Of a stretch of DNA of 35,349 bases, positions 2,824 through 26,768 are shown in pieces. Position 1 is the stretch's first letter; each line of letters starts with the position of its first letter. A program made the translations under genes and the position numbers. Source of the stretch: Eubacteriales bacterium (GTDB lineage: Bacteria; Bacillota; Clostridia; Christensenellales; Aristaeellaceae); assembly GCA_031555975.1 (NCBI GenBank), contig JAVBTW010000276.1, forward strand, positions 1 through 35,349, written 5' to 3'. The notes under the pieces are model-generated. The model worked only from the letters and a program-made list of their open reading frames with translations, did no database searches and was not told the origin of the DNA.

Positions 2824-3067
2824 AGATTTGTCCTCCGTATGTCGGGGCGTTGCCGGTCTCGCGGCGAAATGTACACGAAATTGTGGAGTTTCATTATAAC
2901 ATACATCGACGCCCATTTCAGCCTCTGTCGCGCGGATTTTAGATTAAATCCGGGCTCCATCGAATACGATGAATCGTGATGGCGAAATGGACGCGGTGTA
3001 TCCTGCGAAGGCAACGGTCCGCTTATGGGAACGGACTGTTGTAAATTTAGACGGAGAGGGTGCGCGA

Positions 3068-3733
3068 ATGGTTGCACAGTTTCGGAACTTGGGTTGGGCA
3101 AAGAAGATGGCAATCGTGCTTTGCGCGATTGTCATCCTGGGGATGGGCTTGTTCTTTTACGGCGTGGCAAACCTGAATCCGATCATGATCTCCATGGCCG
3201 AGGCGCGCGGGCGGCAGCTCGCGGTGGAGGCCATCAACAAGGCCGTTCGCGAGGTGATGCAGTCGGGCATCGGGTACAAGGACCTGGTTCAGGTGACGCA
3301 GGATAAGCAGGGCCGGGTCACCATGATCCAGGCCAATACTTTGCTGATGAACGACATCGCCAGCCGCGCCGCGCTGCAGGTGCAGCGCAACCTGCAGGCC
3401 CTGGGCAACGAAGGCGTGGAACTGCCGCTGGGCTCGGCGCTGGGCATCGGGCTGTTCTCGGGATCAGGTCCCCGGATTCGCGTGAGTGTCGTGCCGGTGG
3501 GCTCGGTGGCGACGCGGTTTTCGACCGCATTTGAGTCTGCAGGCATCAATCAGACGCGACACCAGATCTCGCTGATGACCAACACGCAGGTACGGATCGT
3601 CATCCCCACGGGCGCGGATACCGTGCAGGTGGAGGCCAGCGTACCCGTGGCGGAGTCGATCATCGTGGGCGAGGTGCCGCAGACATACCTCAACGCGACG
3701 AGCATGGAGCAGATGCTGGATTTGGTGCCGTAA
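3068..3733 (+). CDS. yunB: Sporulation protein YunB
   Basis: It has an N-terminal TM helix followed by a YunB-family body (GRVTMIQANTLLMN...GPRIRVSVVPVGSV...INQTRHQI...VAESIIVGEVP). The start was moved to the ATG at 3068, after GGAGAGGG. Confidence 0.85.
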   Translation: MVAQFRNLGWAKKMAIVLCAIVILGMGLFFYGVANLNPIMISMAEARGRQLAVEAINKAVREVMQSGIGYKDLVQVTQDKQGRVTMIQANTLLMNDIASRAALQVQRNLQALGNEGVELPLGSALGIGLFSGSGPRIRVSVVPVGSVATRFSTAFESAGINQTRHQISLMTNTQVRIVIPTGADTVQVEASVPVAESIIVGEVPQTYLNATSMEQMLDLVP

Positions 3734-3820: not shown

Positions 3821-4606
3821 TCAGGCGATCCCGAACAACTTCATCCCATTCACGGTCGTTGCCCGGGCCAACGCCTCAAGCGGTATGCCCCGAATCTCGG
3901 CGACCTTCTCCGCCGTGTAGCGCACGAAGGCGGGTTCATTCCGCTTCCCGCGCATTGGCACAGGCGCCCTGTACGGACAATCCGTTTCGATCATCAGCCT
4001 GTCCAGCGGGCAGTTTTCCGCCACCTCCACCAGCTTCGGCGCGTTTTTGAACGTCACCGTGCCGCTGAGGGAGATCGAGAAGCCCATCTTCAGATACGCC
4101 TTTGCGCTTTCCCAGCTGCCGGTGTAGCAATGCATGACGCCGCGCGGCAAGGTGTGTTGTTCGTATCTTTTGATCAGCATCTCCGTCGCCTCGCCGTGAG
4201 CCTCCCGGATATGCAGAATGGCAGGCAGGTTCAGCTCGTAGGCCAGCTGCAGCTGCGCATCGAACGCGGCCTGCTGCTCCGCTCGGGGGGACAGGTCATA
4301 GTGATAATCCAGCCCAATTTCGCCCAGCGCGACCACGCGGTGCTGAGCGAGCCAGCCTTTCAGTCTTTCTGCCCGGTCCGGAGTCCACCTGCTGGCGTCG
4401 TGTGGATGGACCCCGCACGCGGCGTACAGAAAATCGTGTTCCTGGGCCAGCCTGATGGCGGGCAGCGGATCCGTGGCGCCGTCGCCTACCACCAGAGCCA
4501 GCTTCACACCCGCATCCAGCATGCGCTGGATGGTCTCAGCCTGATCCGCCTCGAACCGCTCATCGGTCAGATGACAGTGTGTGTCGAACAGTCTCAAATC
4601 GCTCAT
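3821..4606 (-). CDS. tatD: TatD-family metal-dependent hydrolase/DNase (YabD-like)
   Basis: It has the LFDTHCHL N-terminus and the TatD His/Asp/Glu pattern (HIREAH, HCYTGS, ETDCPY). Its start lies 1 nt after the metG stop, matching the metS-yabD synteny known from Bacillus. Confidence 0.9.
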   Translation of the reverse strand: MSDLRLFDTHCHLTDERFEADQAETIQRMLDAGVKLALVVGDGATDPLPAIRLAQEHDFLYAACGVHPHDASRWTPDRAERLKGWLAQHRVVALGEIGLDYHYDLSPRAEQQAAFDAQLQLAYELNLPAILHIREAHGEATEMLIKRYEQHTLPRGVMHCYTGSWESAKAYLKMGFSISLSGTVTFKNAPKLVEVAENCPLDRLMIETDCPYRAPVPMRGKRNEPAFVRYTAEKVAEIRGIPLEALARATTVNGMKLFGIA

Positions 4607-4607
4607 T

Positions 4608-6605
4608 TTATCCGATCTCCGAACCCGGCTTGATTTCGCCGTCTACGGTCAGCAGTTTCAGATTGCCTTCGTCGTCCGAGGCGCACAGCAGCATGCCTTC
4701 GCTCATGACGCCGCGCATCTTGCGCGGAGCCAAATTGGCGACCAGCACAACCGTCTTGCCCACGATGTCCTCCGGCGCATACCACTGCGCGATGCCACTG
4801 AGCACGGTGCGGGTCTCTCCGCCCACATCCAGGGTCTCCTTGAGCAGCTTATCGGACTTTTCCACGCGCTCGCAGGCCACGACTTTGGCGGTCAGCAACC
4901 GCACCTTGGCAAAGTCGTCGATCGTGATGTAGTCAGCTGCAGTGCCTTCGCCCGCGGTCAGGATGACTCCGGGAACGGGCGCGGGCTTCGCCGCTTGTTC
5001 CGGCTCCGGCTTGCGTTCGGCGCTGGGTGTGGCCGCACCGCCTTCCAGCGCCTCCAGTTCCTTCGGAATATCGATGCGCGGGAACAGGGCCTCTCCCTTT
5101 TTCACCGTCGTGCCCGGCACGAGTCCGCCGAACTTCGCGATGGAATCCCACGTTTTTTTTGCCGCATCCTCAATGCCCAGTTGGGCGAAGATGCGCTCGG
5201 GCGTCCTGGGCATGGTGGGGGCGATGCACACCGCGATGGCGCGCACACACTCGGCCAGGTAGTACATGACGGTCTGGAGCCTGGGCTTTCCTTCTTCGCT
5301 CTTGCCCAGAATCCAGGGCTGGGTCTGGTCGATGTACCGGTTGCAGTCCGAAACCAGTTTCCAGATCTCACCCAGCGCCAGTGAGAATTGCAGCTCGTTC
5401 ATGTGCGTTTCCACCAGTGCGCCAAGTCCTTCGAATCGGGCGCGAAGCGCATCCTCCAGCGCCGTGGGCGCACCGGGTTCCGGCACGACGCCGCCGAAGT
5501 ACTTTTCGATCATGGCCACGGTGCGGCTGACCAGGTTACCCAGGTCGTTTGCCAGGTCGCTGTTCATGCGGGTGAACATGGACTCGGTCGAGAACCTGCC
5601 GTCCGCGCCGAACGGCATCTCCCTCATGAGGAAATAGCGGATGGCGTCTGAGCCGTAACGGCCGCACAGCACCACCGGGTCCACGCCGTTGCCCTTTGAC
5701 TTGCCCATCTTGTCGCCGTCTACGCCCACCAGCCAGCCGTGGCCGAACACCTGCTTGGGCAGCGGCAGGCCCAGCGCGTGCAGCATGATCGGCCAGTAGA
5801 TCGTGTGGAACCGCACGATCTCCTTGCCAACCAGGTGAATGTCGGCGGGCCAGTATTTTTGGTACAGCGAATCATTGTCAGAGCCGTAGCCCAGCGCCGT
5901 GATGTAGTTGCTCAGCGCATCGATCCACACGTACACAACATGGCCGGGGTCAAAGTCCACCGGTACGCCCCACTTGAACGATGTACGGCTGACACACAGG
6001 TCCTGGAGCCCCGGGCGCAGAAAGTTTTGCAGCATTTCGTTTGCGCGGCTCGGCGGCTGGATGAAGTCGGGATGGGTCTCGATGTATTCGATCAGCCAGT
6101 CCTGGTACTTGCTCATCCGGAAGAAGTAGCTCTCCTCTTTGGCGGGCTGCACAGGCCGTCCGCAATCGGGACAGTTGCCGTCCTTCAGCTGGCTCTGGGT
6201 CCAGAACGACTCGCAAGGCGTACAATACAGCCCTTCATACTCGCTCTTGTAGATGTCGCCCTGGTCGTAAAACTGCTTGAAGATCTTCTGCACCACCTTT
6301 TCGTGGCGCGGTTCTGTGGTGCGGATGAAGTCGTCGTACTCGATGTCCATGATCGTCCACAGGTCCTTGATGCCAGCCACGATCTCATCCACGAATTCGA
6401 TGGGCTGTTTGCCCGCCTCCTTGGCCCTGGTCTCGATCTTCTGCCCATGCTCGTCGGTGCCGGTCAGAAAATAGGTGTCGTAGCCGGTCTGCTTTTTGAA
6501 CCGGGCCATCGTGTCTGCGGCTACGGTGCAGTAGCCGTTGCCCAAGTGCAGCTTGTTTGAGGGGTAGTAGATCGGGGTCGTGATGTAGAATGTGCCTTTG
6601 CTCAT
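4608..6605 (-). CDS. metG: Methionine--tRNA ligase with C-terminal tRNA-binding (EMAP/Trbp111-like) domain
   Basis: A class I HIGH-type motif ([11 protein letters not shown]) and a KMSKS-type motif (KMGKSKGN) are present, as is a CPDCG zinc knuckle. The C-terminus has a [11 protein letters not shown]...GMLL OB-fold. The RBS is GGGAGGAG. Confidence 0.95.
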
Positions 6606-6625
6606 GGGGCTGTCTCCTCCCTTTC

Positions 6626-6910
6626 TGTGTGCGGGGAACGAAAAAACGCCGCCCGCAAGCCGTCTTGCGAGGGGCGTCCATATGAACGCGGTACCACCCT
6701 GCTTCTCCCGGTCGTGAGCCGGGACTCATGGCCAACCACCATTGGCCGCGCCTGTAACGGGACAACCCGTCCAAAGCTCAACCCGCATGCGCGGATTCAC
6801 TTTGGAAGCTCAGGAACCATGTTCACGGAGGGTGTTCGTCGCCGACTCGCACCTTGTCCGGCTCTCTGCTGGGCGAAACCGCATCCGCTACTCTTTCCAT
6901 CAATGCCATT
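6626..6910 (-). promoter_or_regulatory. T-box riboswitch leader of metG (Met specifier)
   Basis: On the minus strand I see a GA/K-turn region (GATGGAAAGAGTA), an AGAGAG bulge and a GGTGCGAG distal-loop motif. The specifier loop is GAACAUGG, with AUG at 6818-6820. The canonical T-box core GGGTGGTACCGCG is at 6687-6699 and is followed immediately by a terminator hairpin. Confidence 0.85.
6641..6679 (-). terminator. Intrinsic terminator of the T-box expression platform
   Basis: The minus strand reads GGACGCCCCTCGCAAGacggCTTGCGGGCGGCG followed by TTTTTT. Its 5' arm is positioned to be competed by the T-box antiterminator. Confidence 0.8.
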
Positions 6911-6916
6911 GCAGCT

Positions 6917-6945
6917 ATTATAGGGAGTGGAAGCGGGATTGTCAA
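6917..6945 (-). promoter_or_regulatory. Sigma-A type promoter for the metG T-box leader
   Basis: The minus strand has TTGACA (6940-6945), a 17-nt spacer and TATAAT (6917-6922). Both hexamers match consensus. Confidence 0.8.
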
Positions 6946-6967
6946 GCCCCAATTCGCATGATATAAT
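6939..6967 (+). promoter_or_regulatory. Sigma-A type promoter for the XRE/S24-ispE operon
   Basis: The plus strand has TTGTCA (6939-6944), a 17-nt spacer and TATAAT (6962-6967). Its -35 overlaps the -35 of the divergent metG promoter. Confidence 0.7.
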
Positions 6968-7004
6968 GGCGTGGATATTGAATGCATCCAGGAGGTCACA
7001 AACC

Positions 7005-7739
7005 ATGAGCCGCCTAGGCGATACGATCAAACAAGCGCGCCTCGCATCCAAATTGACCGAAAAGGCGCTGGGCAAGAAATCCGGGTTTTCCGAATCGTTC
7101 ATCAAAGAGATCGAGATGGGGACGCGCATCGTATCCGACGAGCAAGCGCAGCGCATCCTGAAGCTGCTCGGCGTGAAAAACCCTGTTTCCACCGAGCTGG
7201 AGGTGGCGGCCGAGCCTGCAGTTCAGCTCAGGCCCAAGCCGCGCCCCTACATCATGCCCATTCCGGCCGAACAGAAGCCCGAAGAGCCCGCAGCGTCCAT
7301 GGCCTACACCACCGCCACAGAGCAGGAGGCCGTGGCCTCAGACGCGTGGCTGGATGCGCTGTCGGGCATCGTCAAGCGAGTTCCGGTGATGGGTGAGGAC
7401 GGCATGGTGATCGACCATGTGCCGGTGCCGATCGTCTCAGGAAAGATCGAGGGCGGCCAGCCGGACAAAGTGATGTATTATCGCTGTCCCGACGACAGTT
7501 TGCGCGGCTACCGCGTCCATGCGGGCGACTTGCTGTTGGTGGTACCGGAGACAGGCGTCATCGACGATGACATCATGCTGGTGCAGTACAGGGGCAGCAG
7601 AATCGCGCGAAAGCTGGTCAAGCAGGACGGAAACAAAGTGCTGATGCAATCCTTTGACCGGGAATACGCGGGCGAGCGCGTGGACAGGCGTGAGATCGTG
7701 GTCATCGGCAAGTGCGTCAAATTGGAGCGCCGGCTGTGA
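7005..7739 (+). CDS. XRE-family HTH repressor fused to a LexA/CI-like S24 peptidase domain
   Basis: The N-terminus is an XRE HTH (IKQARLASKLTEKALGKKSGFSESFIKEIEMG). A Pro/Ala-rich linker follows. The C-terminus aligns to the LexA core: PIVSGKIEGGQP vs PLVGRVAAGEP, DDSL vs GMSM, GDLLLV, and ARKLVKQDGNKVLMQS vs VKRLKKQGNKVELL. The start is the ATG at 7005, after AGGAGG. Confidence 0.8.
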   Translation: MSRLGDTIKQARLASKLTEKALGKKSGFSESFIKEIEMGTRIVSDEQAQRILKLLGVKNPVSTELEVAAEPAVQLRPKPRPYIMPIPAEQKPEEPAASMAYTTATEQEAVASDAWLDALSGIVKRVPVMGEDGMVIDHVPVPIVSGKIEGGQPDKVMYYRCPDDSLRGYRVHAGDLLLVVPETGVIDDDIMLVQYRGSRIARKLVKQDGNKVLMQSFDREYAGERVDRREIVVIGKCVKLERRL

Positions 7740-8551
7740 AGCGAATCTGTGCGTACGCCAAGATCAACTGGGCGCTGAACATCCTGGGAACGCGCCCGGA
7801 CGGCTATCACGAAATGGACATGCTGATGCAAAGAATTTCTCTTTGCGATACGTTGACGGTTGCCTCATCTGACGAACTGCGGTTTGATGGCGGCGAGGAC
7901 AATTTGGTGATGCGCGCTGCCCGGGCGCTGTGCGCCCACGCGGGCGTCGCCTTTGGCGCGGAGATCGGGCTGACAAAGTGCATCCCCGAGCGGGCGGGCT
8001 TGGGCGGCGGCAGCGCGGACGCGGCAGCGACGCTGCAGGCGCTCAATGAGCTGTGGGCATTGGGGTTGTCCGGCGAAACCCTGGCCCAAATCGGCCTCGG
8101 CTTGGGCGCAGATGTGCCCTTCTGCCTGGCGAGTGGCGCGGCGAGGGCGCGGGGCGTCGGCGAGGCACTGGAAAGGGTGGAGATCGGACAGCGGTACGAT
8201 TTGGTAATCCTGCATCCCGGCGGCGGACTGTCCACGCCCGCCATGTTTCGGCTGTGGGATCAGGAAAAAGCGCATGCGCGCCCGGCAGACATCGAGGCGA
8301 CCCTGGTGGCCCTGCAAACGCAAGATTTTGCGCTGCTCAACCGGGCGTCACGGAACATGCTGACCGCGGTCGCCGTTCAGTCGCTGCCGGAGATCGAGGG
8401 CGCAATGCGGACGTTGGCGGAGCACGGCGCAAAGTTTGCGGCCATGTCGGGCAGTGGGTCTGCGGTTTTTGGGCTGTTCGACTCGGCAACGGAGGCGGAC
8501 AGCGTTGCAAGCAGGATCCGGGGTGCGATCAGGGCCTGGACAATGGAATAG
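7736..8551 (+). CDS. ispE: 4-diphosphocytidyl-2-C-methyl-D-erythritol kinase
   Basis: It has AKINWALNILGTRPDGYHEMD and the GHMP kinase loop PERAGLGGGSADAAA. The likely GTG start at 7736 overlaps the upstream TGA (GTGA). The ATG at 7712 is an alternative start. Confidence 0.9.
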   Translation: MKRICAYAKINWALNILGTRPDGYHEMDMLMQRISLCDTLTVASSDELRFDGGEDNLVMRAARALCAHAGVAFGAEIGLTKCIPERAGLGGGSADAAATLQALNELWALGLSGETLAQIGLGLGADVPFCLASGAARARGVGEALERVEIGQRYDLVILHPGGGLSTPAMFRLWDQEKAHARPADIEATLVALQTQDFALLNRASRNMLTAVAVQSLPEIEGAMRTLAEHGAKFAAMSGSGSAVFGLFDSATEADSVASRIRGAIRAWTME

Positions 8552-8656
8552 GCGCCCATCACTTCATGTGACTTTTGCCAGGCATCCTTGTATAAATCAG
8601 GCTGAATTGGCCGAATCTAACAGCGTACATGCTCTCGAACGAGGAGGATATGACGC

Positions 8657-9190
8657 GTGAAGGTTCGGTTTTTTTGTGCGCTGCTCGCACTGGTGTTGTT
8701 TGTCCATGTGCCCGCAAGGGCGGATGTGCGTCGGCATTTTGCGGAACAGGCGCTGGTGCGGCTTCAGATTGTGGCCGCGAGCAACGATCCCATCGACCAG
8801 GCAACAAAGCTGCGCGTGCGCGACGCGGTACGCGCTGTGGCCATTCCATTGGTAGCGGAAGCGGATTCCCCAGAGGCCGCGTTTGAGCTGCTTGCCCGCC
8901 ATGAAGCGGAACTGACCCAAGCCGCACGGACCGTGGACAGGACCGCGGTTGCCCGCGCCATCATTACCCACTTCCCCGTGCGCATCTACGGCCAGGTCTG
9001 TGTGCCGCCGGGCAATTACCGTGCGCTGCGCGTGACGCTCGGCCCAGGCCAGGGCCGCAATTGGTGGTGTGTGCTCTATCCTGATCTGTGCGCCACGGAC
9101 GCTGCCCAGGCCTCCGCGCTGCGCTCGGGCAGGCCGGTCAAGTTCTATTCCAGCATCCTCAGATGGCTATCGGGAGGCGCTGACCAATGA
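8657..9190 (+). CDS. spoIIR: Stage II sporulation protein R (pro-sigma-E processing signal)
   Basis: A signal peptide is followed by SpoIIR hallmarks: LRLQIVAASNDPIDQATKLRVRDAV and GQGRNWWCVLYPDLC. The GTG start lies 8 nt after GAGGAGGA. Confidence 0.88.
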   Translation: MKVRFFCALLALVLFVHVPARADVRRHFAEQALVRLQIVAASNDPIDQATKLRVRDAVRAVAIPLVAEADSPEAAFELLARHEAELTQAARTVDRTAVARAIITHFPVRIYGQVCVPPGNYRALRVTLGPGQGRNWWCVLYPDLCATDAAQASALRSGRPVKFYSSILRWLSGGADQ

Positions 9191-9867
9191 AAATCATGCA
9201 TAAGCTGATCGCAATCGGTTTGGTCATTGCGCTGTTGCTCAGCGTACACGCGCTTGCCGCGACGACGCTCGAAGTGGGGTCCAGCGGCGCGGATGTGACC
9301 AAGGTGCAGAAGCGGCTGATCCAATACGATTACATGTCGGGCACAGCCGACGGCAAATACGGCGCCAAGACCCGCGACGCTGTCAAGCTGTTCCAGCGGC
9401 GAAACGGACTCGCAGTGGACGGAAAGGTCGGGCCTGCCACCGCAGCAAAGCTCGGTGTGACGCTGTCAGGCGGATCGCAGACCACCAAAGCCACCGCGGC
9501 GTCCGCGTCAATCACATCCAGTGACCACCGGCTGCTTGCGCGCTTGGTCCACGCGGAGGCGCGGGGCGAACCTTACAAGGGCAAGGTGGCCGTAGCGGCG
9601 GTGGTGCTGAACCGGGTCAAGAGTTCCCAGTTCCCCAACACGATCTCCGGCGTGATCTACCAAAAGAACGCATTCAGCTGTGTCGATGACGGCCAGATCA
9701 ACATGGCCCCAGATGACGAATCTATCCGCGCCGCCCGCGATGCCATGAACGGCTGGGACCCCACCGGCGGATGCCTATACTTTTACAACCCGAAGGCCAC
9801 CAACGACAAGTGGATCCGTACCCGCACGACAAAGACCGTCATCGGCAACCATCATTTTTGTCTGTAA
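9187..9867 (+). CDS. sleB: Spore cortex-lytic enzyme SleB-like (PG_binding_1 + Hydrolase_2)
   Basis: It has a signal peptide and a peptidoglycan-binding repeat (GADVTKVQKRL...DGKYGAKTRDAVKLFQRRNGLAVDGKVGPAT). The SleB/CwlJ catalytic domain is present (HAEARGEPYKGKVAVAAVVLNRV...FPNTISGVIYQKNAFS). The ATG overlaps the spoIIR stop (ATGA). Confidence 0.88.
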   Translation: MKIMHKLIAIGLVIALLLSVHALAATTLEVGSSGADVTKVQKRLIQYDYMSGTADGKYGAKTRDAVKLFQRRNGLAVDGKVGPATAAKLGVTLSGGSQTTKATAASASITSSDHRLLARLVHAEARGEPYKGKVAVAAVVLNRVKSSQFPNTISGVIYQKNAFSCVDDGQINMAPDDESIRAARDAMNGWDPTGGCLYFYNPKATNDKWIRTRTTKTVIGNHHFCL

Positions 9868-9882: not shown

Positions 9883-11205
9883 GTGGTCAACGCAAAGAAG
9901 CGCAAGGGCGCACTGCTCACGGCAATGATCGTCCTGGTGGCCGCCTTGCTGCTGCTGGGCACGTTTCAAAACCATCGCGTAAAGGCGCTCACAAACCAGG
10001 TCAACGCGGCCTATGAGAAGTCGCTGTACGAGGCCGTGGCGCTGATGAACGGCATCCAGCTCAACCTGGAAAAGCTGCTGGTCTCGTCCTCCGGCAACGG
10101 TCATGAGGAACAATTGCTCGCCACCATCACGCAACAGTCCGAAGGCGCGCAATCCAACCTGGCAGGGGTGCCGCTGAGCCCGGAGTTGCTGACCGGCGCC
10201 ATGAAGTTTGTCAACCAGATGGGCGATTACGGAAAGGCGCTGGGCAAGCAAATCGCGGACGGTGGCAAGCTGGGCGAGAAGGACATCCAGCAGTTGATCA
10301 GCATGCACGACGCCTGCGTGGAACTGAATCTGGGCCTGTTTGACATCCTCGGGCAATATGAGCGCGGCGAGCTGGGTTTTGACGTGCCCGACAACCTGCA
10401 GGTCGCGGCGAAGGACATATCCACTCAGACCGAGCCCATGGTGGACTATCCGGTGCTGCTGTACGACGGGCCGTTCAGCGACGCCGACCGGACCAGCGCG
10501 GCGCTCTCGGGCGACCCTGTGGATCAAGCCACCGCGCAACAGATGCTGATCGACTTCGTGGGCGCTGACCGGGTGAAAAAGGCCAGCTTCACGGGCGAAT
10601 CGACCATCATGGACAAGTGTTTTGAGTTCGAACTGGACACCACCGACGGACTGCTGACCTGCGGCGTAACCCAGCGCGGCGGCCACGTGCTGTACATCCT
10701 GCCGGAGCAAGGCGTAGAAAACGCGAGCTTGACCCAGGGCGAGTGCATCGACCGCGCGCTGCAGTTCCTGGGATCGAGGAGCTATAGCGAGCTGGAAGTC
10801 AGCTACTGGCGTCAATTGGGCGGTCTGCTGACGGTCAACTTCGCAGCGTCCCAGGACAGCGTACTGCTGTATCCCGATCTGATCAAAGTGCAGGTCTCCA
10901 TGCAGAGCGGCATGGTTGTGGGCCTGGATGCGTCAAGCTACCTGAAAAACCACCGCAAGCGCTACCTCGCAGAGCCCCAGTTTACCAGCGTCATGGCGCT
11001 GGACAGCCTGGGCGCGGTGCTGACCCCCGACCGCATCCGCCGCTGCGTCATCCCGCTGGATTCCGGCGGCGAAGCGCAATGCTGGGAGATCACAGCCCAC
11101 ATGGAGGGCGGGAACCAGTACCTGGTGTATAAGGACGTCATCACAGGGGAGGAGCTGCAAATCCTGCGGATCATGGTGGAGGACGACGGGGTGTTGGCGC
11201 AGTAG
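9883..11205 (+). CDS. ypeB: Germination protein YpeB (SleB partner, PepSY-domain protein)
   Basis: It sits immediately downstream of sleB, the conserved sleB-ypeB pairing. It has an N-terminal TM anchor, YpeB-like length and C-terminal PepSY-like repeats. The GTG start is preceded by AGGAGG. Confidence 0.8.
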   Translation: MVNAKKRKGALLTAMIVLVAALLLLGTFQNHRVKALTNQVNAAYEKSLYEAVALMNGIQLNLEKLLVSSSGNGHEEQLLATITQQSEGAQSNLAGVPLSPELLTGAMKFVNQMGDYGKALGKQIADGGKLGEKDIQQLISMHDACVELNLGLFDILGQYERGELGFDVPDNLQVAAKDISTQTEPMVDYPVLLYDGPFSDADRTSAALSGDPVDQATAQQMLIDFVGADRVKKASFTGESTIMDKCFEFELDTTDGLLTCGVTQRGGHVLYILPEQGVENASLTQGECIDRALQFLGSRSYSELEVSYWRQLGGLLTVNFAASQDSVLLYPDLIKVQVSMQSGMVVGLDASSYLKNHRKRYLAEPQFTSVMALDSLGAVLTPDRIRRCVIPLDSGGEAQCWEITAHMEGGNQYLVYKDVITGEELQILRIMVEDDGVLAQ

Positions 11206-14434: not shown

Positions 14435-17400
14435 CTATTGCACGGATTCCGCCTTGTTCGTGACCTTGACGAGCCGCTTGTTCAGCTCCGCCATCAGTTG
14501 CGGCATGTCCAGCGGCTTGGCCACATGGGCGTCCATGCCTGCGTCCAGGCAGCGCTCCACGTCCTCGCGGAACGCGTTGGCGGTCATCGCCACAATGGGT
14601 ACGCGCTTGGCCCAGGGCATGGGCAACGCGCGTATGCGGCGCGTGGCCTCCAGTCCGTCCATGACCGGCATTTGAATGTCCATCAAAATCATATCGTACT
14701 TTTCGGGGTCCCGCTCGAACTTCCAGACGGCCTGCTCACCGTTTTCCGCCTCGTCAAAGGCGATCTCCGTGTAAGACAGCATGCTGGTCACGATCTCGCG
14801 ATTGATCTCCACATCCTCCACCAGCAACACGGAAAGCCCCGCAAACCGTTTCGGATCCTCATCGAGACCGCGCTGCTCACCCTGGCTCATGCCCACCGCA
14901 AACATATTGTTGATGCACTGCGCCACTTGCGACGGAAACAGCGGTTTGGGGATGAAGCTCGAAACGCCTGCCGTCAGCGCGCCTTCTGAAATTTCGCTCC
15001 ATTCGGTCACGGAAACCATGATGATGACCGGATGCAGCGCCTGCATTCTGCGGATCTCCCGCGTCAGCTCAATCCCGTCCATGCCGGGCATCTGGTAGTC
15101 AACAAAAATCAAGTCGTAAGGCGGCTCCGCGGCCTCAATCAACCGCAGCGCTTCATCGCCGGAGGCGGCCACATCGCACACCTCACCCAACTGGCTCATG
15201 ACGTGGCGGCAGTACTCCAGCGCGTCATCGCTGTCGTCCACGGCCAGGATGCGCAGTCCGCTGTGGTTGAGCTGGTCGGCGCTGTCGGCGAGCTTTGCGC
15301 TTGACGGACCAAAAACAGCGGTGAACGAGAACGTGCTTCCCTGCCCCGGCGCGCTCCGGACCCAGATTTGGCCGCCCATCAACTCCACGATGCGCTTGCT
15401 GATCGCAAGGCCCAGACCGGTGCCTCCGAACTTGCGGCTGATGCCGCCGTCTGCCTGCTCAAATGAACGGAAAAGCCGCGATTGTTGCTCGTCCGAGATG
15501 CCAATGCCCGTGTCCGAAACGTCCAAGTGCAACACAATCCGCTGTTCGTCTTGCTGCTTTACGCCCGCATGGAGCGTGATTTGTCCACCCTCGGGCGTGA
15601 ACTTGGACGCGTTGGTCAGCAAGTTTGTGAGCACTTGAGCAAGTCTTTGTTCGTCACCGAACAGCGCGGGCGGGATACCGTCATCCACGCTGAGCGCCAG
15701 CACTTGGTGCTTTTCCTCGGTGCGGAAAATGATCACGTTGACGACCGATTCCAGCACTTTTTCGAAGTTGAAATCGATGAAACTCAACTCGAACTTGTTG
15801 GCCTCGATCTTGGACATGTCCAGGATATCGTTGATGACGCCCAACAAGTGCTTGGACGCGCCTTCGATTTTGTTTAGACAGTACTCGCGCCGCTCCCAGC
15901 TTTGCGACATCTTACCTATGTTGGTCATACCGATGATGGCGTTCATGGGTGTGCGCATTTCGTGGCTCATGCGGCTGAGAAACTCAGACTTGGCCTGACT
16001 GGTTTGCTCGGCGATCTCCTTTGCCTCCGTCAGATCCTTTTCCAGCTGGCGCGTTTCGGTGATGTCCACCGCGATGGCGCCCATGCCGCCATTTTTGCCA
16101 TCCAGTTTGAAACCAAAGAACTGCATCAGCCTGTACTGGCCGTCCTTTCGTCGCATAAACAGCTCGAAAACATACCGCCCCTGCGCGTTGATCTGGGGCA
16201 CGATCTCACCATAGATCGCGTTCATGTCCGATTCGTCATACAGCAACCCAAACCCGCCCGCCATCAGCTCATCCACGGTGTAACCGGTGATGCGCTCGGC
16301 AGCGGGGTTGAAATAATCGCATTCGCCCCGGTCGTTGATCAGCGAAATGTACTGCGGCGCGGACTCAATGGTGCCCGACAGCCGAATCAGCTTATCCTCA
16401 GCCTCTTTGATGTCCGTGATGTCCACGGAGTGCTGCAGATGCACACGCCTGCCATGGGTCCAGTCAATCAGCTTGTCGGTGTTTCGATAATAGCGGCCTG
16501 TGACGGTGTTGTGCTCCTCCCACAAAACCACGGCTTCCGGGTCCTGGCGAAGTTTTTTCACCGGACAGAAGTCACACTCGCCGCTGAAGTCCTCCTGCAG
16601 CACGCGCCAGCAAACCTGGCCCTTTGCCTGCTTCGACAACCCAAAATGCCGCTGCATCTTGTCGTTGATGAACAGGATCTCGCTGGTGTCCGGATCGGTG
16701 ACATACAGGTAGGCGTCCATGCTGTTGAGGATGGTCTGCAGCGTGTCTATGGACATCTTGTCACGCTCTTGAAGCTGGCGGGTTTTTTCCAGGCGCGCCA
16801 CCATGTCATTCACGGACATGCCCAGCACACGCAACTCTGTCGTGCCGCCATACTTGTCCATATCCAGTGGCGCGTCGGCGGACACCGCCTGCACGTCCGC
16901 TGCCATGACGCGGGTTGGCGTGATGACCAGCCGGTTGATCAGAAAAAACATCAAGGACAGCGCCCCTAGCAACAGCCCCATCAAAACCAGCGAGGTGAGC
17001 ACAACCATGCGCTGCCCCTCGTGAAAGATCGTCCTGGGATAGGTCATGGTCAGGACGATGGGATTGCCAAGAATGTCGTCCATTTGCTTGGATACGGACA
17101 GATGGTCCGCACCGCTGCGCACGACGTACGGCTCTGCGCCGATGTCGCTGCTCGCCGCGCGGATGTCCAGCTTCAGCATCGGCAGACCCGTGACCGCCCT
17201 CACAAAGTCCTGAGTAAACCGAAGCGCAAATGTGAATGTGCCCACCGGCGGCGCCAAACGCAAATTGTCTGAAATGGGCAATGTACACAGCAGATAGGGT
17301 TCGCCCTCATAGAGCAGCAATCCGGCGTACCGGTGTTCATGGCTGCGGATGCGCTCATCCTGTCCATACCGCGCCAGCGCCTTCTCCGCCACCTGCGTCA

Positions 17401-17848
17401 GCCTCGTCGTGAACCCCAGCGGCAACACCGCGCCCTGGCCCGACGCGAAATCATAGCCCATGGTGTACAAGTCGCGCCCTTTCAGATCCTTCAGGACGAC
17501 GTAGTCGTAGGTATAGTCCTTCAACATCGCATAATCGGTCATGTTGCTCTTGAGGTACTGGCTGTTTTGGTTGATGACATAATTGCGCGCGTCGTCCCAA
17601 CTGGCCATGGCCAAAGTGTTCGTCTGAAGGTTGTCCTCCACACGATTCAGTGTCGTCAGCAAAGTTTCGGACAACTCGTCCACATGCAGCAGCTCGGTCT
17701 GACGCATCACGCCCTGCATATACGTAAGAAACACGAAAAACACGATGATGAATACCAGTGTAAGCGCGAACGCTGCCATCATCGCGAGCATGGACCGCAT
17801 CGACTTCTGCCGCCTTTTCAATTCCCCTCTCAGCCTCCAGACGCCCAT
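14435..17848 (-). CDS. Hybrid sensor histidine kinase: extracytoplasmic sensor, HAMP, 2 PAS, HisKA, HATPase, 2 receiver domains
   Basis: A TM-bounded N-terminal sensor region is followed by PAS-like segments. The H-box is SHEMRTPMNAIIGM and the N/G boxes are LLTNASKFTPEGG, DTGIGI and GGTGLGLAISK. REC1 is ILAVDD...FVDYQMPGMDG and REC2 is VLLVEDVEINR...LMDIQMPVMDG. The exact start codon is uncertain. Confidence 0.9.
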   Translation of the reverse strand: MGVWRLRGELKRRQKSMRSMLAMMAAFALTLVFIIVFFVFLTYMQGVMRQTELLHVDELSETLLTTLNRVEDNLQTNTLAMASWDDARNYVINQNSQYLKSNMTDYAMLKDYTYDYVVLKDLKGRDLYTMGYDFASGQGAVLPLGFTTRLTQVAEKALARYGQDERIRSHEHRYAGLLLYEGEPYLLCTLPISDNLRLAPPVGTFTFALRFTQDFVRAVTGLPMLKLDIRAASSDIGAEPYVVRSGADHLSVSKQMDDILGNPIVLTMTYPRTIFHEGQRMVVLTSLVLMGLLLGALSLMFFLINRLVITPTRVMAADVQAVSADAPLDMDKYGGTTELRVLGMSVNDMVARLEKTRQLQERDKMSIDTLQTILNSMDAYLYVTDPDTSEILFINDKMQRHFGLSKQAKGQVCWRVLQEDFSGECDFCPVKKLRQDPEAVVLWEEHNTVTGRYYRNTDKLIDWTHGRRVHLQHSVDITDIKEAEDKLIRLSGTIESAPQYISLINDRGECDYFNPAAERITGYTVDELMAGGFGLLYDESDMNAIYGEIVPQINAQGRYVFELFMRRKDGQYRLMQFFGFKLDGKNGGMGAIAVDITETRQLEKDLTEAKEIAEQTSQAKSEFLSRMSHEMRTPMNAIIGMTNIGKMSQSWERREYCLNKIEGASKHLLGVINDILDMSKIEANKFELSFIDFNFEKVLESVVNVIIFRTEEKHQVLALSVDDGIPPALFGDEQRLAQVLTNLLTNASKFTPEGGQITLHAGVKQQDEQRIVLHLDVSDTGIGISDEQQSRLFRSFEQADGGISRKFGGTGLGLAISKRIVELMGGQIWVRSAPGQGSTFSFTAVFGPSSAKLADSADQLNHSGLRILAVDDSDDALEYCRHVMSQLGEVCDVAASGDEALRLIEAAEPPYDLIFVDYQMPGMDGIELTREIRRMQALHPVIIMVSVTEWSEISEGALTAGVSSFIPKPLFPSQVAQCINNMFAVGMSQGEQRGLDEDPKRFAGLSVLLVEDVEINREIVTSMLSYTEIAFDEAENGEQAVWKFERDPEKYDMILMDIQMPVMDGLEATRRIRALPMPWAKRVPIVAMTANAFREDVERCLDAGMDAHVAKPLDMPQLMAELNKRLVKVTNKAESVQ

Positions 17849-22866: not shown

Positions 22867-23640
22867 TTAGGCTGTTTTCGAGAGGCGCACCTTGTCGGCC
22901 ACCAGGGCGATGAATTCGCCATTGCTCGGCTTTCGCGCCGCTTCGTGATGGGGGATGCCCAACAATGACCTGAAATTCTCCAGGTTGTTTCGTTGCCAGG
23001 TGATGGATATCGCATGTCTGATCGAGCGCTCTACCTTGGACGACGTCGTACCAAATGCTTGCGCCACTGTCGGGTACAGTTCCTTCGTTATATAATGAAT
23101 CGTCTCCCAATTGTCCGCCACCAAGCGCACTGCTTCCTTTAAGTAGTCATAACCCTGCACATGAGACGGGACGCCGATCCCGAGAAACAATTCGTTTATC
23201 CGCTCAACAATCCCACGTTCACAGCTGGGCTGCACCGCATGCATCCAGCCGCTTCGCTCCGCTGATTCGCCCATGTGCAGCATACACACGCGCTGATGCA
23301 GCACCTCGTAATCAAACGGTTTCAACATATAAAAGCTCGCGCCCAAGTCCATCGCGCGCGCGATGCAATCGTCCTTTCCCATGGCGCTCAGCACGATCAC
23401 GCGCGGTCGCTCACCCGGCAAGCCCAACAACTTTTCGAGATAACAGAACCCATCGTGGATCGGCATCACCAGGTCCAGCACCACAACGTCTGGATGCTGA
23501 CGCAGCGTCACCTCAAACGCTTCCGCGCCATTTGATGCAGTGCCCACCACCTTCACACCGTCCTTGCGCTGAAAGTAGTCCGACATGCTCTTACGGATCC
23601 CTTCGTTGTCGTCGCAGATCAACATCTTGATCGTGTCCAT
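22867..23640 (-). CDS. spo0A: Sporulation master response regulator Spo0A
   Basis: The receiver domain has ICDDNEG, VVVLDLVMPIHDG and a LSAMG-type motif. The Spo0A-specific C-terminal domain is present: GVPSHVQGYDYLKEAV, ITKELYPTVAQAFGTTSSKVERSIRHAI and KPSNGEFIALVADK. The start was trimmed to the ATG at 23640, after AAAGGGGGG. Confidence 0.95.
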   Translation of the reverse strand: MDTIKMLICDDNEGIRKSMSDYFQRKDGVKVVGTASNGAEAFEVTLRQHPDVVVLDLVMPIHDGFCYLEKLLGLPGERPRVIVLSAMGKDDCIARAMDLGASFYMLKPFDYEVLHQRVCMLHMGESAERSGWMHAVQPSCERGIVERINELFLGIGVPSHVQGYDYLKEAVRLVADNWETIHYITKELYPTVAQAFGTTSSKVERSIRHAISITWQRNNLENFRSLLGIPHHEAARKPSNGEFIALVADKVRLSKTA

Positions 23641-23687: not shown

Positions 23688-23689
23688 CG

Positions 23690-23698
23690 ATTATAGCA
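23690..23698 (-). promoter_or_regulatory. Extended -10 promoter element (TGcTATAAT) proximal to spo0A
   Basis: The minus strand reads TGCTATAAT, about 50 nt upstream of the spo0A ATG. The -35 is weak (TTTCAT at a 17-nt spacing). Confidence 0.6.
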
Positions 23699-23807
23699 TG
23701 CAGGTCTCAAAAATGAAACCGTCATTTTATTAAGATGATACGCACCCAGCACAGTGCGGCAACATATTGACCGACTGAGTTCTCTATGTACCATATCTAT
23801 ACCGATT

Positions 23808-23824
23808 TGACGAACATTGTCGAA
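23808..23824 (+). promoter_or_regulatory. Tandem direct 0A boxes (TGACGAA and TGTCGAA) with starts 10 bp apart
   Basis: The plus strand reads TGACGAAcatTGTCGAA. Both boxes fit TGNCGAA and the second is the perfect consensus. The 10-bp phasing fits head-to-tail Spo0A dimer sites. Confidence 0.55.
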
Positions 23825-23982: not shown

Positions 23983-23989
23983 TTCGACA
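23983..23989 (-). promoter_or_regulatory. 0A-box match (TGTCGAA, minus strand) inside the predicted 5' UTR of the kinase-like operon
   Basis: The plus strand TTCGACA is the reverse complement of the perfect TGTCGAA box. Confidence 0.45.
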
Positions 23990-24083: not shown

Positions 24084-25406
24084 ATGCATACAAACACAGT
24101 CGTTTCCGGTCCCATAGGTCCCATCTGGACCTGCGCCGTGGTCATCGCTTCGTATGTCAACATGCTCTTGATTGCGAAGCTGATTTCGCATGTCTATCAT
24201 GAGCCCATCAGCATCAAGCGCCGACTGGCCTTCGCAGCGCTGGCGGGTGGGCTTTCCGCCAGCACCTGGGCCTTCGGCGCGGGCCTGTTTGGTAGCCTGC
24301 CGCTGTCCAATCTGGCCCACTTCGCGCTCAGCACCGTGAATCCTCTGCTGGCGATGGCTTACTACTACATCGCCTCCAGAGTCCTGCACTTGCCCGCCGT
24401 GCACTCGATCCGAATGATGGGCCATATCTATCTGCTGGACATGCTCGTCATCGCCATAAGCCGCTTTGCAGTCAGGATCCTTTCCGGCCCGAACGCGGAC
24501 CATATGACGCTCGTCACGCTCGACAAGCTTGCCTCCCTCGCAGTGCTGTCGCTGGTCTATCTCTGTGTGCGTATCTATCAACGCGCATCGGGCTTTCACA
24601 TCAGCCTCAGCGACAAGGCCAGCCCCAACGTCCATCGCGAACTGCTCCTGTACATGATCCGCACCTCTTTCGCCTACATCGTCGCAGTCGTCGTACCGTT
24701 GTGCCTCGCCAATCCGCTGACTGTACAACGGTTGCTCATCATCATCTTTGCGCTATTGCTGCTGCTGGACATCCAAATCGACCTGCGGCGCGCCATGGCG
24801 TTGCGGTTGGAGAACAAGAAGGCGCACATCAATGCTCTGACCGCCGCGATGGAAGAGTTTTCGCAGGTCAAGCATGACTTTTTTAACATTTTACAGACCT
24901 ACCAGGGGTACATCTCCATGGGCGATTTGGATCAGCTGAAGCGCTATCATGCCACGCTCGCCAACTACACCTTGAAGGCTGACAATCGCATGGCGCTCAC
25001 CGCACGCGCGGAGGAACACCCTCAACTGGTCCAACTGTTGACCAAGCGCGCGGAACTGGCCGAGCATCGCGGTGTGCGGTTGTACATTGACATACAGGTC
25101 GATTTGCAGCATCTGCTCTTGGCCCCAGAGGAATTGTGCAAAGTCGCAGCACTCCTGCTGGACAACGCGATCGACGAGGCGTCTCAATCCCCTATGCGCC
25201 ATGTGTTTTTTTCCATTGAGGCCAAACCTCATGACGAACGCCTTTTGACGGTCTCCCACAGCACCACGAGTCCGAACGAACATAGTCCAGCCCTCATCCA
25301 TGTGCGTCACATTCTGGCCAAACACACCAACTGCGCGTTTCACACCGCGTATTACGACAGCGAGTTTTCCACATACCTGGGCATTTGCCCGCCGTTCACC
25401 GCCTAG
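24084..25406 (+). CDS. Polytopic membrane sensor-kinase-like protein P1: Spo0B/AgrC-type DHp with H-box His, GHKL domain lacking the ATP-lid G-box
   Basis: It has 6-7 predicted TM helices, then LRLENKKAHINAL. The H-box is VKHDFFNILQTYQGY, with the His codon at 24873-24875. The N-box is LLLDNAIDEA. Relative to its paralog, 15 residues are missing where the F/G-box (ERPGVSSKPGHMGQGL) should be. Confidence 0.8.
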   Translation: MHTNTVVSGPIGPIWTCAVVIASYVNMLLIAKLISHVYHEPISIKRRLAFAALAGGLSASTWAFGAGLFGSLPLSNLAHFALSTVNPLLAMAYYYIASRVLHLPAVHSIRMMGHIYLLDMLVIAISRFAVRILSGPNADHMTLVTLDKLASLAVLSLVYLCVRIYQRASGFHISLSDKASPNVHRELLLYMIRTSFAYIVAVVVPLCLANPLTVQRLLIIIFALLLLLDIQIDLRRAMALRLENKKAHINALTAAMEEFSQVKHDFFNILQTYQGYISMGDLDQLKRYHATLANYTLKADNRMALTARAEEHPQLVQLLTKRAELAEHRGVRLYIDIQVDLQHLLLAPEELCKVAALLLDNAIDEASQSPMRHVFFSIEAKPHDERLLTVSHSTTSPNEHSPALIHVRHILAKHTNCAFHTAYYDSEFSTYLGICPPFTA

Positions 25407-25415
25407 CGGAGAAAG

Positions 25416-26768
25416 TTGAGCATCATGTACCTAAACATCGCCTACTCGAGCGCCATGCGGCTCATCTCGATGAGCGTATCATTCATCAACGTGTACTTGT
25501 TGATGTACTTGATCGCAAAACTGATCGAGGACATCTATTTTACACAGTTCCCTGTCAAACGAAAGCTGCTGTTTGCGCTTCTTTCTGGCACTGTTTTGAA
25601 TGATGCTTGGCGCTTCGGTCTGAGCGCGCTCTCGCCACTCGCCAAAACACTCTTGTCCGCCGACAACCCGGTCTTTGCACTGCTGTTTTATTTGATCGGT
25701 ATTCTCGTGCTCAACCTGCCATCGCGCCATGCAGGGCGGCTGATGGGGCATGCGTTCCTGTATTACATAATTACAAGTGTTTTTTGCCGCCTGGTCGCGT
25801 CACTGCTCTTCATACAACAGCCCGGACCCCGCAACCATCTGATGGATGCGGTCCAGCAACTGACCGCCACAGCCATCATGGTGATGATGAGTGCGATCAC
25901 TGTGCGCTGGCTGCGCCTGATTGGGTACAGCGCAAGTCTGGCGGACCAAGTGCCCGACAAACCTCGGCGCGGCCTGTTGATTTATACGCTGAACGCGACA
26001 TTTGTGTTTGTGTTGTGTACATGGGTGCCTGAGACCACGGAGAACCAGGCGGTGGCCAACGCGCTTTTGATGATCACCTTTGTGTTGCTGTTTTTGTTTG
26101 GCGTACAGTTGGAAATCAAGGATGCCATTGCCGTGCGCCTGGAAAACAAAAACGTACACAGCAACGCGCTCAGGAACACGATTGAAGAGTTTTCCGGCAT
26201 CAAGCGCAACTTTCACTCCATCCTGCAGGGCTATCAGCGGCACCTGAGCAAAGGGGATCTGGAAGGACTGCGCCAGTATCATGACGCGCTCATGGATCAG
26301 ACCGTGCGCGCGGACGGCGAGATGCAGCTCAGCCGCCGCATGGAAGAAAACCCGGCGCTGGTCGCGCTGCTCATCAACAAAGCCGAGGCCGCAAAGCAGA
26401 AGGATCTGCGGCTGCGCCTAGACATCCAGACCAGCCTTTGTGGACTCGCCATCAGCAACCTGGACCTGTGCCGCGTCGTTGCATGCCTGCTCGACAACGC
26501 CCTCGAAGCCGCGCAGGAATCGGACCAGCGTCTGATCCACTTCTCCATCGAATACAAGCCCGCAGGTGGGCGGCTGATCATCCTTTCCAACAGCACGGGC
26601 CACCCGGTGGACGTGCGCGACATCGAACGGCCAGGCGTCTCCAGCAAGCCCGGACACATGGGCCAGGGACTGCCCTCGGTAAGAAAGACCTTGGCGAAAT
26701 ACGAAAACTGTACGCTGCACACCTCATACTACGACGGCGGCTTCTTCGCCTACCTCGCCATCGGCTGA
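25416..26768 (+). CDS. Polytopic membrane sensor-kinase-like protein P2: paralog with intact GHKL N- and G-boxes but non-canonical H-box
   Basis: It starts 9 nt after P1, in the same architecture. The H-box position reads IKRNFHSILQGYQRH: Arg (26205-26207) replaces the canonical His and a His lies 3 residues later (26214-26216). The N-box is CLLDNALEAA and the ATP-lid is PGVSSKPGHMGQGLPSV (26652-26672). The start is either the TTG at 25416 or the ATG at 25425. Confidence 0.8.
   Translation: MSIMYLNIAYSSAMRLISMSVSFINVYLLMYLIAKLIEDIYFTQFPVKRKLLFALLSGTVLNDAWRFGLSALSPLAKTLLSADNPVFALLFYLIGILVLNLPSRHAGRLMGHAFLYYIITSVFCRLVASLLFIQQPGPRNHLMDAVQQLTATAIMVMMSAITVRWLRLIGYSASLADQVPDKPRRGLLIYTLNATFVFVLCTWVPETTENQAVANALLMITFVLLFLFGVQLEIKDAIAVRLENKNVHSNALRNTIEEFSGIKRNFHSILQGYQRHLSKGDLEGLRQYHDALMDQTVRADGEMQLSRRMEENPALVALLINKAEAAKQKDLRLRLDIQTSLCGLAISNLDLCRVVACLLDNALEAAQESDQRLIHFSIEYKPAGGRLIILSNSTGHPVDVRDIERPGVSSKPGHMGQGLPSVRKTLAKYENCTLHTSYYDGGFFAYLAIG

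Follow-up and report, generated by a model that had tools for sequence, protein, structure and literature searches.

Tandem AgrC-type kinase paralogs with complementary motif losses beside spo0A: a probable split membrane sensor kinase in uncultured Clostridia

Apart from a few model species, it is not settled how Spo0A is activated; two answers are known so far, a phosphorelay and single orphan kinases of the HisKA type. A further answer may be encoded in a DNA stretch of 35,349 nucleotides from a Eubacteriales bacterium (assembly GCA_031555975.1, contig JAVBTW010000276.1; hereafter the window), where two tandem genes for paralogous membrane kinases, here called P1 and P2, lie divergently to spo0A. 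What can two such kinases do, if each of them lacks one requirement of catalysis? P1 bears the phosphoacceptor histidine and has a degenerate catalytic domain; P2 has an intact catalytic domain and no histidine at the proper place. We consider it rather probable that the two together make up one membrane sensor kinase of the AgrC type (HPK10-like), split by nature into two proteins and signalling to Spo0A.

The initial annotation of the window, made from the DNA letters alone, had described two alignable open reading frames (ORFs) of 440 and 450 amino acids on the same strand. They are indeed there (Table 1), share one frame, and their products align end-to-end by BLASTP with 37% identity (E 3e-95) and a single 15-residue gap in P1. 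The distance of 9 nt between them applies to the ORFs as listed. For P2, however, the ATG at 25425 is the more likely start (447 aa), in agreement with its orthologs, and the gap then becomes 18 nt. Six to seven transmembrane helices had been proposed for each protein; the structural models discussed below have seven. The juxtamembrane segment said to be conserved is present in both proteins, the pair showing it as LRLENK and VRLENK.

The catalytic motifs are distributed in a complementary way. The H-box of P1 with its histidine codon, the arginine at the aligned position of P2 and the N-boxes of both proteins were located as described. The position given for the P2 G-box had to be corrected: PGVSSKPGHMGQGL spans 26631-26672, not 26652-26672. 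P1 was said to lack a 15-residue block comprising ATP lid and G-box. This is true for the P1 of the window, where no functional lid is seen: lid and G-box are gone and the conserved Asn of the family motif ITNST is lost as well. It is not true for its orthologs, as will be shown. Pfam sorts the pair likewise. P1 is matched by SPOB_a alone (24.4 bits, below the cut-off of 28.1) and by no HATPase model, P2 by HATPase_c_5 alone (44.3 bits, cut-off 22). The membrane domain of the two proteins has no match in Pfam, and NCBIfam AgrC yields only 25-36 bits for the pair at a cut-off of 500.

A profile of the family matches the kinase module of Staphylococcus aureus AgrC (PDB 6E52) with an E-value of 9e-21; it aligns the family's KHDFYNILQTY on RHDYVNILTTL of AgrC and GvSSKxGHxGxGL on SFSTKGEGRGLGL. 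His264 of P1 falls on the histidine of the AgrC 'RHD', and the P1-AgrC alignment ends past the N-box. In P2 it is Arg264 that falls on this histidine, and the alignment runs through the G-box (GRGLGL). Family and AgrC alignments thus both give the column of P1 His and P2 Arg as that of the phosphoacceptor, as had been supposed. The histidine that P2 has three residues further on was considered as a shifted acceptor and rejected, because it is a tyrosine in both P2 orthologs and because the AgrC alignment points to the Arg column.

AlphaFold2 models (predicted local distance difference test, pLDDT, 78 for P1 and 77 for P2) show seven membrane helices, the last of which is continuous with helix 1 of the DHp domain. 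In both proteins a DHp hairpin and an AgrC-like alpha/beta catalytic (CA) domain follow. The best Foldseek matches of either protein are AgrC structures (6E95, 6E52) and the ATP-binding domain of AgrC (4BXI), with TM-scores against the latter of 0.75 for P1 and 0.79 for P2. P1 therefore keeps the GHKL fold and the N-box, but is devoid of lid, G-box and any HATPase match in Pfam. Helix 2 of the DHp hairpin carries a Tyr-His pair (Y288-H289 of P1, 24945-24950, and the aligned residues of P2). It is invariant in an alignment of 14 sequences comprising complete, CA-degenerate and P2-type members, and is present in at least 90% of a large His-less clade introduced below; AgrC reads Tyr-Phe there. 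The P2 clade has, in addition, a clade-specific histidine at +12 from the H-box position (QRHL).

Close relatives are rare. In a search of 5.8 billion proteins, P1 had only two (47-49% identity), and P2 likewise two (63-64%). The orthologous loci L001, a contig of a millipede-gut metagenome-assembled genome (MAG; GCA_031555755.1), and L002, from a Logan assembly, both have spo0A divergent from a P1-like gene that is followed by a P2-like one. Co-occurrence of P1 and P2 and their linkage to spo0A are thus kept, as had been anticipated, and other arrangements of the same elements are seen in L039, L058-L061 and L144. The P1 orthologs retain the lid segment, yet with a degraded G-box (KTGL or KAGL for GxGL). 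The 15-residue deletion is thus a peculiarity of the window P1 and had to be dismissed as a mark of the P1 lineage; a degraded G-box is seen in P1 of all three genomes. The H-box of P2 has a different sequence in each genome: KRNF (window), KNGL (L001) and EHSF (L002). None of the three keeps the acidic residue that follows the histidine; the histidine itself was lost twice, to Arg in the window and to Asn in L001, and is retained in L002. As we read these sequences, the catalytic domain of P1 would have failed first, and the His motif of P2, no longer phosphorylatable, may then have drifted. Such an order would imply trans-phosphorylation from the catalytic domain of P2 to the histidine of P1. 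Indeed, the complementary losses make sense only with phosphorylation in trans between the two proteins.

Neither gene appears to be decaying. Between L001 and L002 the ratio of nonsynonymous to synonymous substitutions (dN/dS) is 0.34 for P1 as a whole (CA 0.33, DHp 0.18) and 0.25 for P2 (DHp 0.17, CA 0.22), with a range of 0.17-0.44 across all domains of the two proteins. It is low even in the degenerate CA domain and in the His-less DHp domain, which speaks against decay. The DHp domain is the best-conserved region of both proteins (67-86% identity between orthologs).

The pattern is not confined to the window. When 1.84 billion representatives were searched exhaustively with the family profile, 293 proteins were obtained at E<1e-30; motif classes were counted on 134 near-full-length sequences among the best 150 of these. 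Complete motifs (KHDFYNILQTY, LLDNAIEAA, G(V)SSKxGHxGxGL) were found in 87 of the 134. Nineteen lack the histidine and have intact catalytic motifs, 18 keep the histidine and have degenerate N- or G-boxes, and in 5 the histidine is retained and the following Asp lost. In the His-less members the whole HDFYNILQTY motif decays, whereas in their partners it is almost invariant. When the family members were classified in every locus fetched, 12 distinct loci proved to contain a His-degenerate member, and in 11 of them the adjoining gene encodes a His-intact, catalytically degenerate paralog. The gaps between the paired genes range from -20 to +58 nt; overlaps occur in L003, L058, L061 and L144. 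The split between ATP binding and phosphoacceptor that characterises the window pair at the motif level recurs in the partners of L039, L058-L061, L143 and L144.

The complementary pairs keep company with Spo0A. A Spo0A-family gene adjoins 9 of the 12 loci with a His-degenerate member and none of 50 loci without one. In five cases, namely the window, L001, L002, L039 and L058, this gene is a bona fide spo0A; L058-L061 and L144 carry a Spo0A paralog. In the latter five the paralog is divergent from the gene of a His-less, CA-intact kinase, which is followed by that of a His-intact, CA-dead one. The paralogs score 124-142 bits on TIGR02875, below its cut-off of 200, that of L144 being a Spo0A_C fragment; they retain all catalytic residues of the receiver. 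Spo0A paralogs with a split kinase of their own do not seem to have been described. A gene of about 100 aa encoding DUF6514 recurs beside the operons of Spo0A paralogs and split kinases (L059:3941-4219, L061:7863-8165, L062:3053-3355).

Did all these pairs descend from a single one? In neighbour-joining trees (Kimura distances, 100 bootstrap replicates) the P1 and P2 clades of the window lineage are sisters in 99/100 replicates with the whole alignment, and in 88/100 with either the membrane or the cytoplasmic half. Thirteen His-less representatives, mutually less than 50% identical, form one large clade, and P2 falls within it in 0/100 replicates. According to these trees, the window pair arose by a duplication of its own. 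The complementary split beside spo0A would hence have arisen at least twice, a count that comes from simple-distance trees and could be affected by old gene conversion between the tandem copies.

Table 1. Positions of the two kinase genes, their motifs, spo0A and regulatory elements in the window, and of related pairs in other loci
Feature	Position	Strand	Remark
P1, AgrC-type membrane kinase paralog, His-bearing, catalytically degenerate	24084..25406	+	440 aa
P1 seven transmembrane helices	about residues 11-235		
P1 H-box KHDFFNILQ	24870-24896	+	His264 codon 24873-24875
P1 N-box LLDNAIDEA	25155-25181	+	
P1 VSHST, replacing family ITNST	25251-25265	+	conserved Asn changed to His
P1 deletion of ATP lid/G-box, following codon 394	about 25265/25266	+	
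P2, AgrC-type membrane kinase paralog, His-less, catalytically intact	25416..26768	+	450 aa
P2 H-box position KRNFHSILQ	26202-26228	+	Arg codon 26205-26207
P2 N-box LLDNALEAA	26487-26513	+	
P2 LSNST	26583-26597	+	
P2 G-box/lid PGVSSKPGHMGQGL	26631-26672	+	
spo0A	22867..23640	-	257 aa from ATG at 23640; ORF list reaches GTG 23688
Sigma-70-type promoter TTGACT-17 nt-TATAAT, facing P1-P2	23895..23923	+	11/12 consensus matches
Spo0A-box-like heptamer TGTCGAA	23818..23824	+	inside three-genome block CGAACwTTGTCGAATyTTG
Additional TGNCGAA match, spo0A-P1 intergenic region	23808-23814	+	
Additional TGNCGAA match, spo0A-P1 intergenic region	23983-23989	-	
L039			His-less gene, CA-dead gene, convergent with bona fide spo0A (254 bits)
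L058	63-4488		Spo0A paralog, His-less gene, CA-dead gene, immediately bona fide spo0A (273 bits)
L059	4232-7766		Spo0A paralog, His-less gene, CA-dead gene
L060	1975-5546		Spo0A paralog, His-less gene, CA-dead gene
L061	4218-7734		Spo0A paralog, His-less gene, CA-dead gene
L144	1-3170		Spo0A paralog, His-less gene, CA-dead gene
L143			CA-dead gene, then His-less gene
L003			CA-dead gene, then member with His kept but the following Asp lost
L057			lone His-less gene

The gene divergent to P1-P2 had been called spo0A, and it is a bona fide one: its product scores 256.5 bits on the Spo0A equivalog TIGR02875 (cut-off 200) and matches Response_reg and Spo0A_C of Pfam. It aligns from MDTIKML with orthologs of 259 aa; in this alignment DD, D56 and K107 of the receiver do not vary. 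Translation probably starts at the ATG at 23640 rather than at the upstream GTG. At 23689-23700 (minus strand) the three genomes share a block GATTATA(A/G)CA, which gives TATAAT when read on the minus strand and lies a short distance upstream of this ATG; it is probably the -10 element of spo0A, which makes the GTG at 23688 an unlikely start. The spo0A of the window has no spoIVB upstream; linkage of spoIVB and spo0A is the usual arrangement.

Within the intergenic region between spo0A and P1, two stretches do not vary across the window, L001 and L002. One is the P1 promoter: both its hexamers are unchanged, while the surrounding intergenic DNA is poorly conserved. The other is the Spo0A-box-like heptamer, which is aligned and exactly identical in the three. 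The degenerate form TGNCGAA occurs three times in these 395 bp, as compared to a density of 0.82 per kb over the window. It is not enriched in the window as a whole (29 observed, 25 expected), and only the local cluster and its conservation deserve attention. The element could serve spo0A, P1-P2 or both, if its likeness to a Spo0A box is functional.

How might such a pair work? P1 and P2, both retaining the seven-helix sensor and the DHp hairpin, would form a heterodimer via the four-helix bundle of their DHp domains. The catalytic domain of P2 would bind ATP and phosphorylate His264 of P1 in trans, and P1~P would hand its phosphoryl group on to Asp56 of the neighbouring, divergently encoded Spo0A. 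AgrC itself is described as autophosphorylating in trans (George Cisar et al. 2009, as cited in PMC6066662). Adjacency or overlap of the genes and the near-equal numbers of the two classes indirectly support a P1:P2 complex; the genomic linkage suggests the Spo0A receiver as the target of phosphotransfer. Free or unstimulated P1, which keeps H-D-x-x-N, may serve as a Spo0A~P phosphatase. This motif is used in PMC3591291 for phosphatase-competent HisKA proteins, and its meaning may by analogy extend to the P1 family. Both genes would be transcribed from the one conserved sigma-70-type promoter, and the conserved Spo0A-box-like element upstream might provide feedback. Observed are the states of domains and motifs, the His register, the kept synteny, the purifying selection and the recurring complementary pairs beside Spo0A-family genes; the dimer of P1 with P2, the way in which the phosphoryl group moves, its delivery to Spo0A, a phosphatase function and the kind of signal sensed are inferred. 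Only tentatively, and with rather more doubt than belief, would we generalise further: that a seven-helix AgrC-like clade of uncultured gut Clostridia has formed obligate two-gene heterodimers with at least two independent origins, each of an ATP-binding subunit without the histidine and a His-bearing one with a dead catalytic domain, dedicated to Spo0A or a hitherto unnoticed paralog of it and acting as a two-input, switch-like gate of sporulation. A pair would be such a gate because its sensor domains have diverged and its His-bearing half may double as a phosphatase. The initiation of sporulation would then have a third architecture besides the phosphorelay and single orphan kinases.

Of course, a number of observations weigh against the split-kinase interpretation. 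The N-box of the window P1 is intact. In L001 and L002, P1 keeps the lid segment as well as the N-box, and ATP binding is conceivable there; the P2 of L002 still bears its histidine. It may be that this lineage has gone only part of the way towards obligate complementarity. The Tyr-His of DHp helix 2 is maintained even in His-less members. L057 shows no partner, and the flanks available for L003, L057 and L143 contain no Spo0A gene. The association with Spo0A-family genes corresponds to a Fisher p of 1.5e-7, computed with 8/12 (the ninth locus, L060, with its 124 bits on TIGR02875, was missed by phmmer), which overstates the support because the loci share ancestry and were ascertained unevenly. 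Nearly all family sequences stem from metagenome assemblies. Finally, for CA-degenerate, His-bearing members that stand beside complete kinases and a single-domain receiver, a role in a relay fits better.

The last point leads to the most serious competitor, to which we would nevertheless give a low probability. P1 might be a membrane-anchored phosphotransferase of the Spo0B kind, or a Spo0A~P phosphatase, that takes its phosphate from a receiver domain charged by some other kinase; P2 would then be a regulator of the pseudokinase type or serve another target. The design of P1, a histidine on a helical hairpin followed by a GHKL-like domain without ATP-binding motifs, upstream of Spo0A, mirrors that of Spo0B, and its sole Pfam match is the Spo0B-type helical domain. 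CA-degenerate, His-intact relatives do follow single-domain receivers beside complete kinases (L008, L023-L025, L029, L030), and a hybrid kinase with two receivers is encoded 5 kb away in the window. A membrane-localised Spo0B, the Spo0B-TM of Paenibacillus, is known, so that membrane anchoring is compatible with transfer to Spo0A (PMC12826061). Spo0B, however, takes its phosphate from Spo0F and not from a paralogous ATP-binding partner, and it has at most a simple anchor instead of a seven-helix sensor. No single-domain receiver adjoins P1-P2 in the window, L001, L002 or L039. Foldseek and sequence searches group P1 with AgrC, and Spo0B structures are not among the top 50 Foldseek matches of P1. 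The gene neighbourhood of Spo0B is obg-rplU-rpmA (PMC6136694), and none of these three genes is found in the neighbourhood in the window. P1 is Spo0B-like in design but is no Spo0B homolog by sequence, structure or neighbourhood. Moreover, a Spo0B-like P1 leaves unexplained why the partner has kept perfect N- and G-boxes under purifying selection and has lost exactly the His motif, and why both classes are adjacent in 11 of the 12 loci.

Still less credit is due to an autonomous P2 that would use another residue (the +3 His, the +12 His of QRHL or the Tyr-His of helix 2), with P1 and P2 as independent inputs to Spo0A. There are histidines near the P2 H-box, the helix-2 Tyr-His is family-invariant where AgrC has Tyr-Phe, and the P2 of L002 has retained the canonical histidine. 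Yet both orthologs have Tyr at +3, the large His-less clade has not retained the +12 His, and constraint differs between the classes at the H-box and not at helix 2. An autonomous P2 would also leave P1, with its dead catalytic domain, without a phosphodonor. The least credible of the alternatives is that P1 and P2 are duplicates decaying under relaxed selection with coincidental losses, or mere artefacts of assembly or annotation. P1 evolves faster than P2 (48% versus 65% identity between the window and L001), and the predominance of metagenome assemblies might raise suspicion of artefacts. Both genes, however, are full-length ORFs in every genome examined, the low dN/dS extends over every domain, the promoter is conserved, and the same complementarity is met in independent assemblies and in deep clades.

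How does the proposed split kinase compare with what is known? The best match of P1 and P2 in sequence and structure is S. aureus AgrC, an HPK10-type kinase. Common to all are the polytopic sensor, the continuous helix leading into the DHp hairpin and a catalytic domain of the HATPase_c_5 type, recognised in P1 by its fold and in P2 by fold and Pfam match; the (R/K)HD H-box is shared by P1 but not by P2. P1 and P2 differ from AgrC in adjoining Spo0A instead of LytTR and AgrB, and in that each paralog misses one catalytic requirement. Among the ORFs of the window with 130 aa or more, none contains a LytTR or an AgrB domain, AgrD being too small for the searches used; with Spo0A as the adjoining regulator, a standard Agr module was rejected, in line with the initial annotation. 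In laboratory complementation, heterodimers of His-minus and G-box-minus mutants of EnvZ, NtrB or AgrC, the subunit with the live catalytic domain phosphorylates the one with the dead domain. The logic is the same, but these are engineered mutants of one gene, whereas P1 and P2 are natural, diverged and maintained as two genes.

Natural split kinases are known as well. In CheA3/CheA4 of Rhodobacter sphaeroides, ATP binding and the phosphorylatable histidine reside on two proteins, neither of which autophosphorylates alone; the His-bearing partner is also a phosphatase, and an ultrasensitive or bistable output has been proposed (PMC3591291). At the motif level P1 and P2 fit the definition of a split kinase by Amin, Porter and Soyer (2013). 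The CheAs, however, are soluble chemotaxis kinases that miss whole domains, while P1 and P2 are full-length membrane sensors with degenerated motifs, presumed to dimerise via DHp. Mycobacterium tuberculosis has two adjoining sensor-kinase genes, Rv0600c (HK1) and Rv0601c (HK2), for one response regulator, TcrA (PMC3544749). There a HisKA-type kinase is split at the level of domains, without duplicated sensor domains and without a link to sporulation. Shrivastava et al. reportedly assign the ATP-binding domain to HK1 and the His domain to HK2.

The orphan sporulation kinases and phosphotransfer proteins of clostridia resemble P1 and P2 in being presumed direct inputs to Spo0A and in occurring as several paralogs per genome; they differ in being of the HisKA type and in being encoded away from spo0A (PMC11210211). 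The words 'heterodimer', 'pseudokinase' and 'AgrC' do not occur in that review. The statement that many Clostridia lack Spo0F and Spo0B is only partly true, since candidates are reported in 17-18 of 30 spore-forming Clostridia (PMC6136694). A literature search of incomplete coverage, and hence weak as evidence of novelty, brought up no natural pairs of heterodimeric or degenerate kinases with a link to Spo0A; the reviews of clostridial sporulation kinases that it covered describe nothing of the kind. The pairs described here differ from the known split kinases by their full-length paralogous membrane halves, by decay of motifs instead of loss of domains, by coupling to the Spo0A family and by apparently more than one origin.

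The window and at least eight related loci point to another solution than those known: a membrane kinase that is split by nature into a heterodimer and whose genes lie next to that of its regulator. P1, P2 and Spo0A offer a testable three-protein system for sporulation initiation in uncultured Oscillospirales-like Clostridia. L002, L001 and the window would also illustrate, as natural intermediates, the path from a duplicated homodimeric kinase to an obligate heterodimer by complementary loss, and the pair would be a natural counterpart of the classic His-minus/G-box-minus complementation experiments. The theory of split kinases predicts an ultrasensitive or bistable output (PMC3591291), the very behaviour that a sporulation switch needs. 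The operons with Spo0A paralogs suggest that the repertoire of Spo0A-type regulators is wider than assumed.

The source of the window is a spore former, as yunB, spoIIR, sleB and ypeB are present (2969-3733, 8657-9190, 9187-9867 and 9883-11205, respectively). Housekeeping genes and a ylmE-sepF-divIVA cluster are encoded there too. The hybrid sensor kinase mentioned above (14435-17848, minus strand; 5 kb from spo0A) comprises CHASE4, PAS, HisKA, HATPase_c and two receiver domains. It requires a His-bearing acceptor downstream, and P1 could in principle be that acceptor. In L059 a hybrid kinase with an Hpt domain lies directly upstream of the Spo0A-paralog operon.

The family looks strongly niche-restricted or under-sampled. 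In a scan of 185,579 species genomes, all 50 loci with the H-box pattern (L007-L056) came from one set of millipede-hindgut MAGs (accessions JAVB..., EPI_MAG/GLO_MAG; PMC10823672). Further members stem from Logan or ENA assemblies. Cluster look-ups gave no name or accession for any family member. A metagenome scan with the generic pattern L[LI][DN]NAIEAA brought up, among the matches listed, mostly ordinary AgrC-like kinases of the human gut; only L063 and L064 among them are true members, both complete, and no Spo0A was seen. The scan was uninformative on pairing.

Some loci of the family contain single-domain receivers. In L008 (4114-7287), L024 (5743-8910), L029 (5821-8799) and L023, L025 and L030 (about 4100-8800) a His-intact, G-box-less member directly follows a receiver of 130-150 aa beside complete kinases, a layout that resembles a sequence of kinase, Spo0F-like receiver and membrane-bound Spo0B-like phosphotransferase. 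In L005 (4604-9207) a receiver of 130 aa is flanked by two complete family kinases, with a regulator of the RR-HD-GYP type and CspB-like germination proteases nearby.

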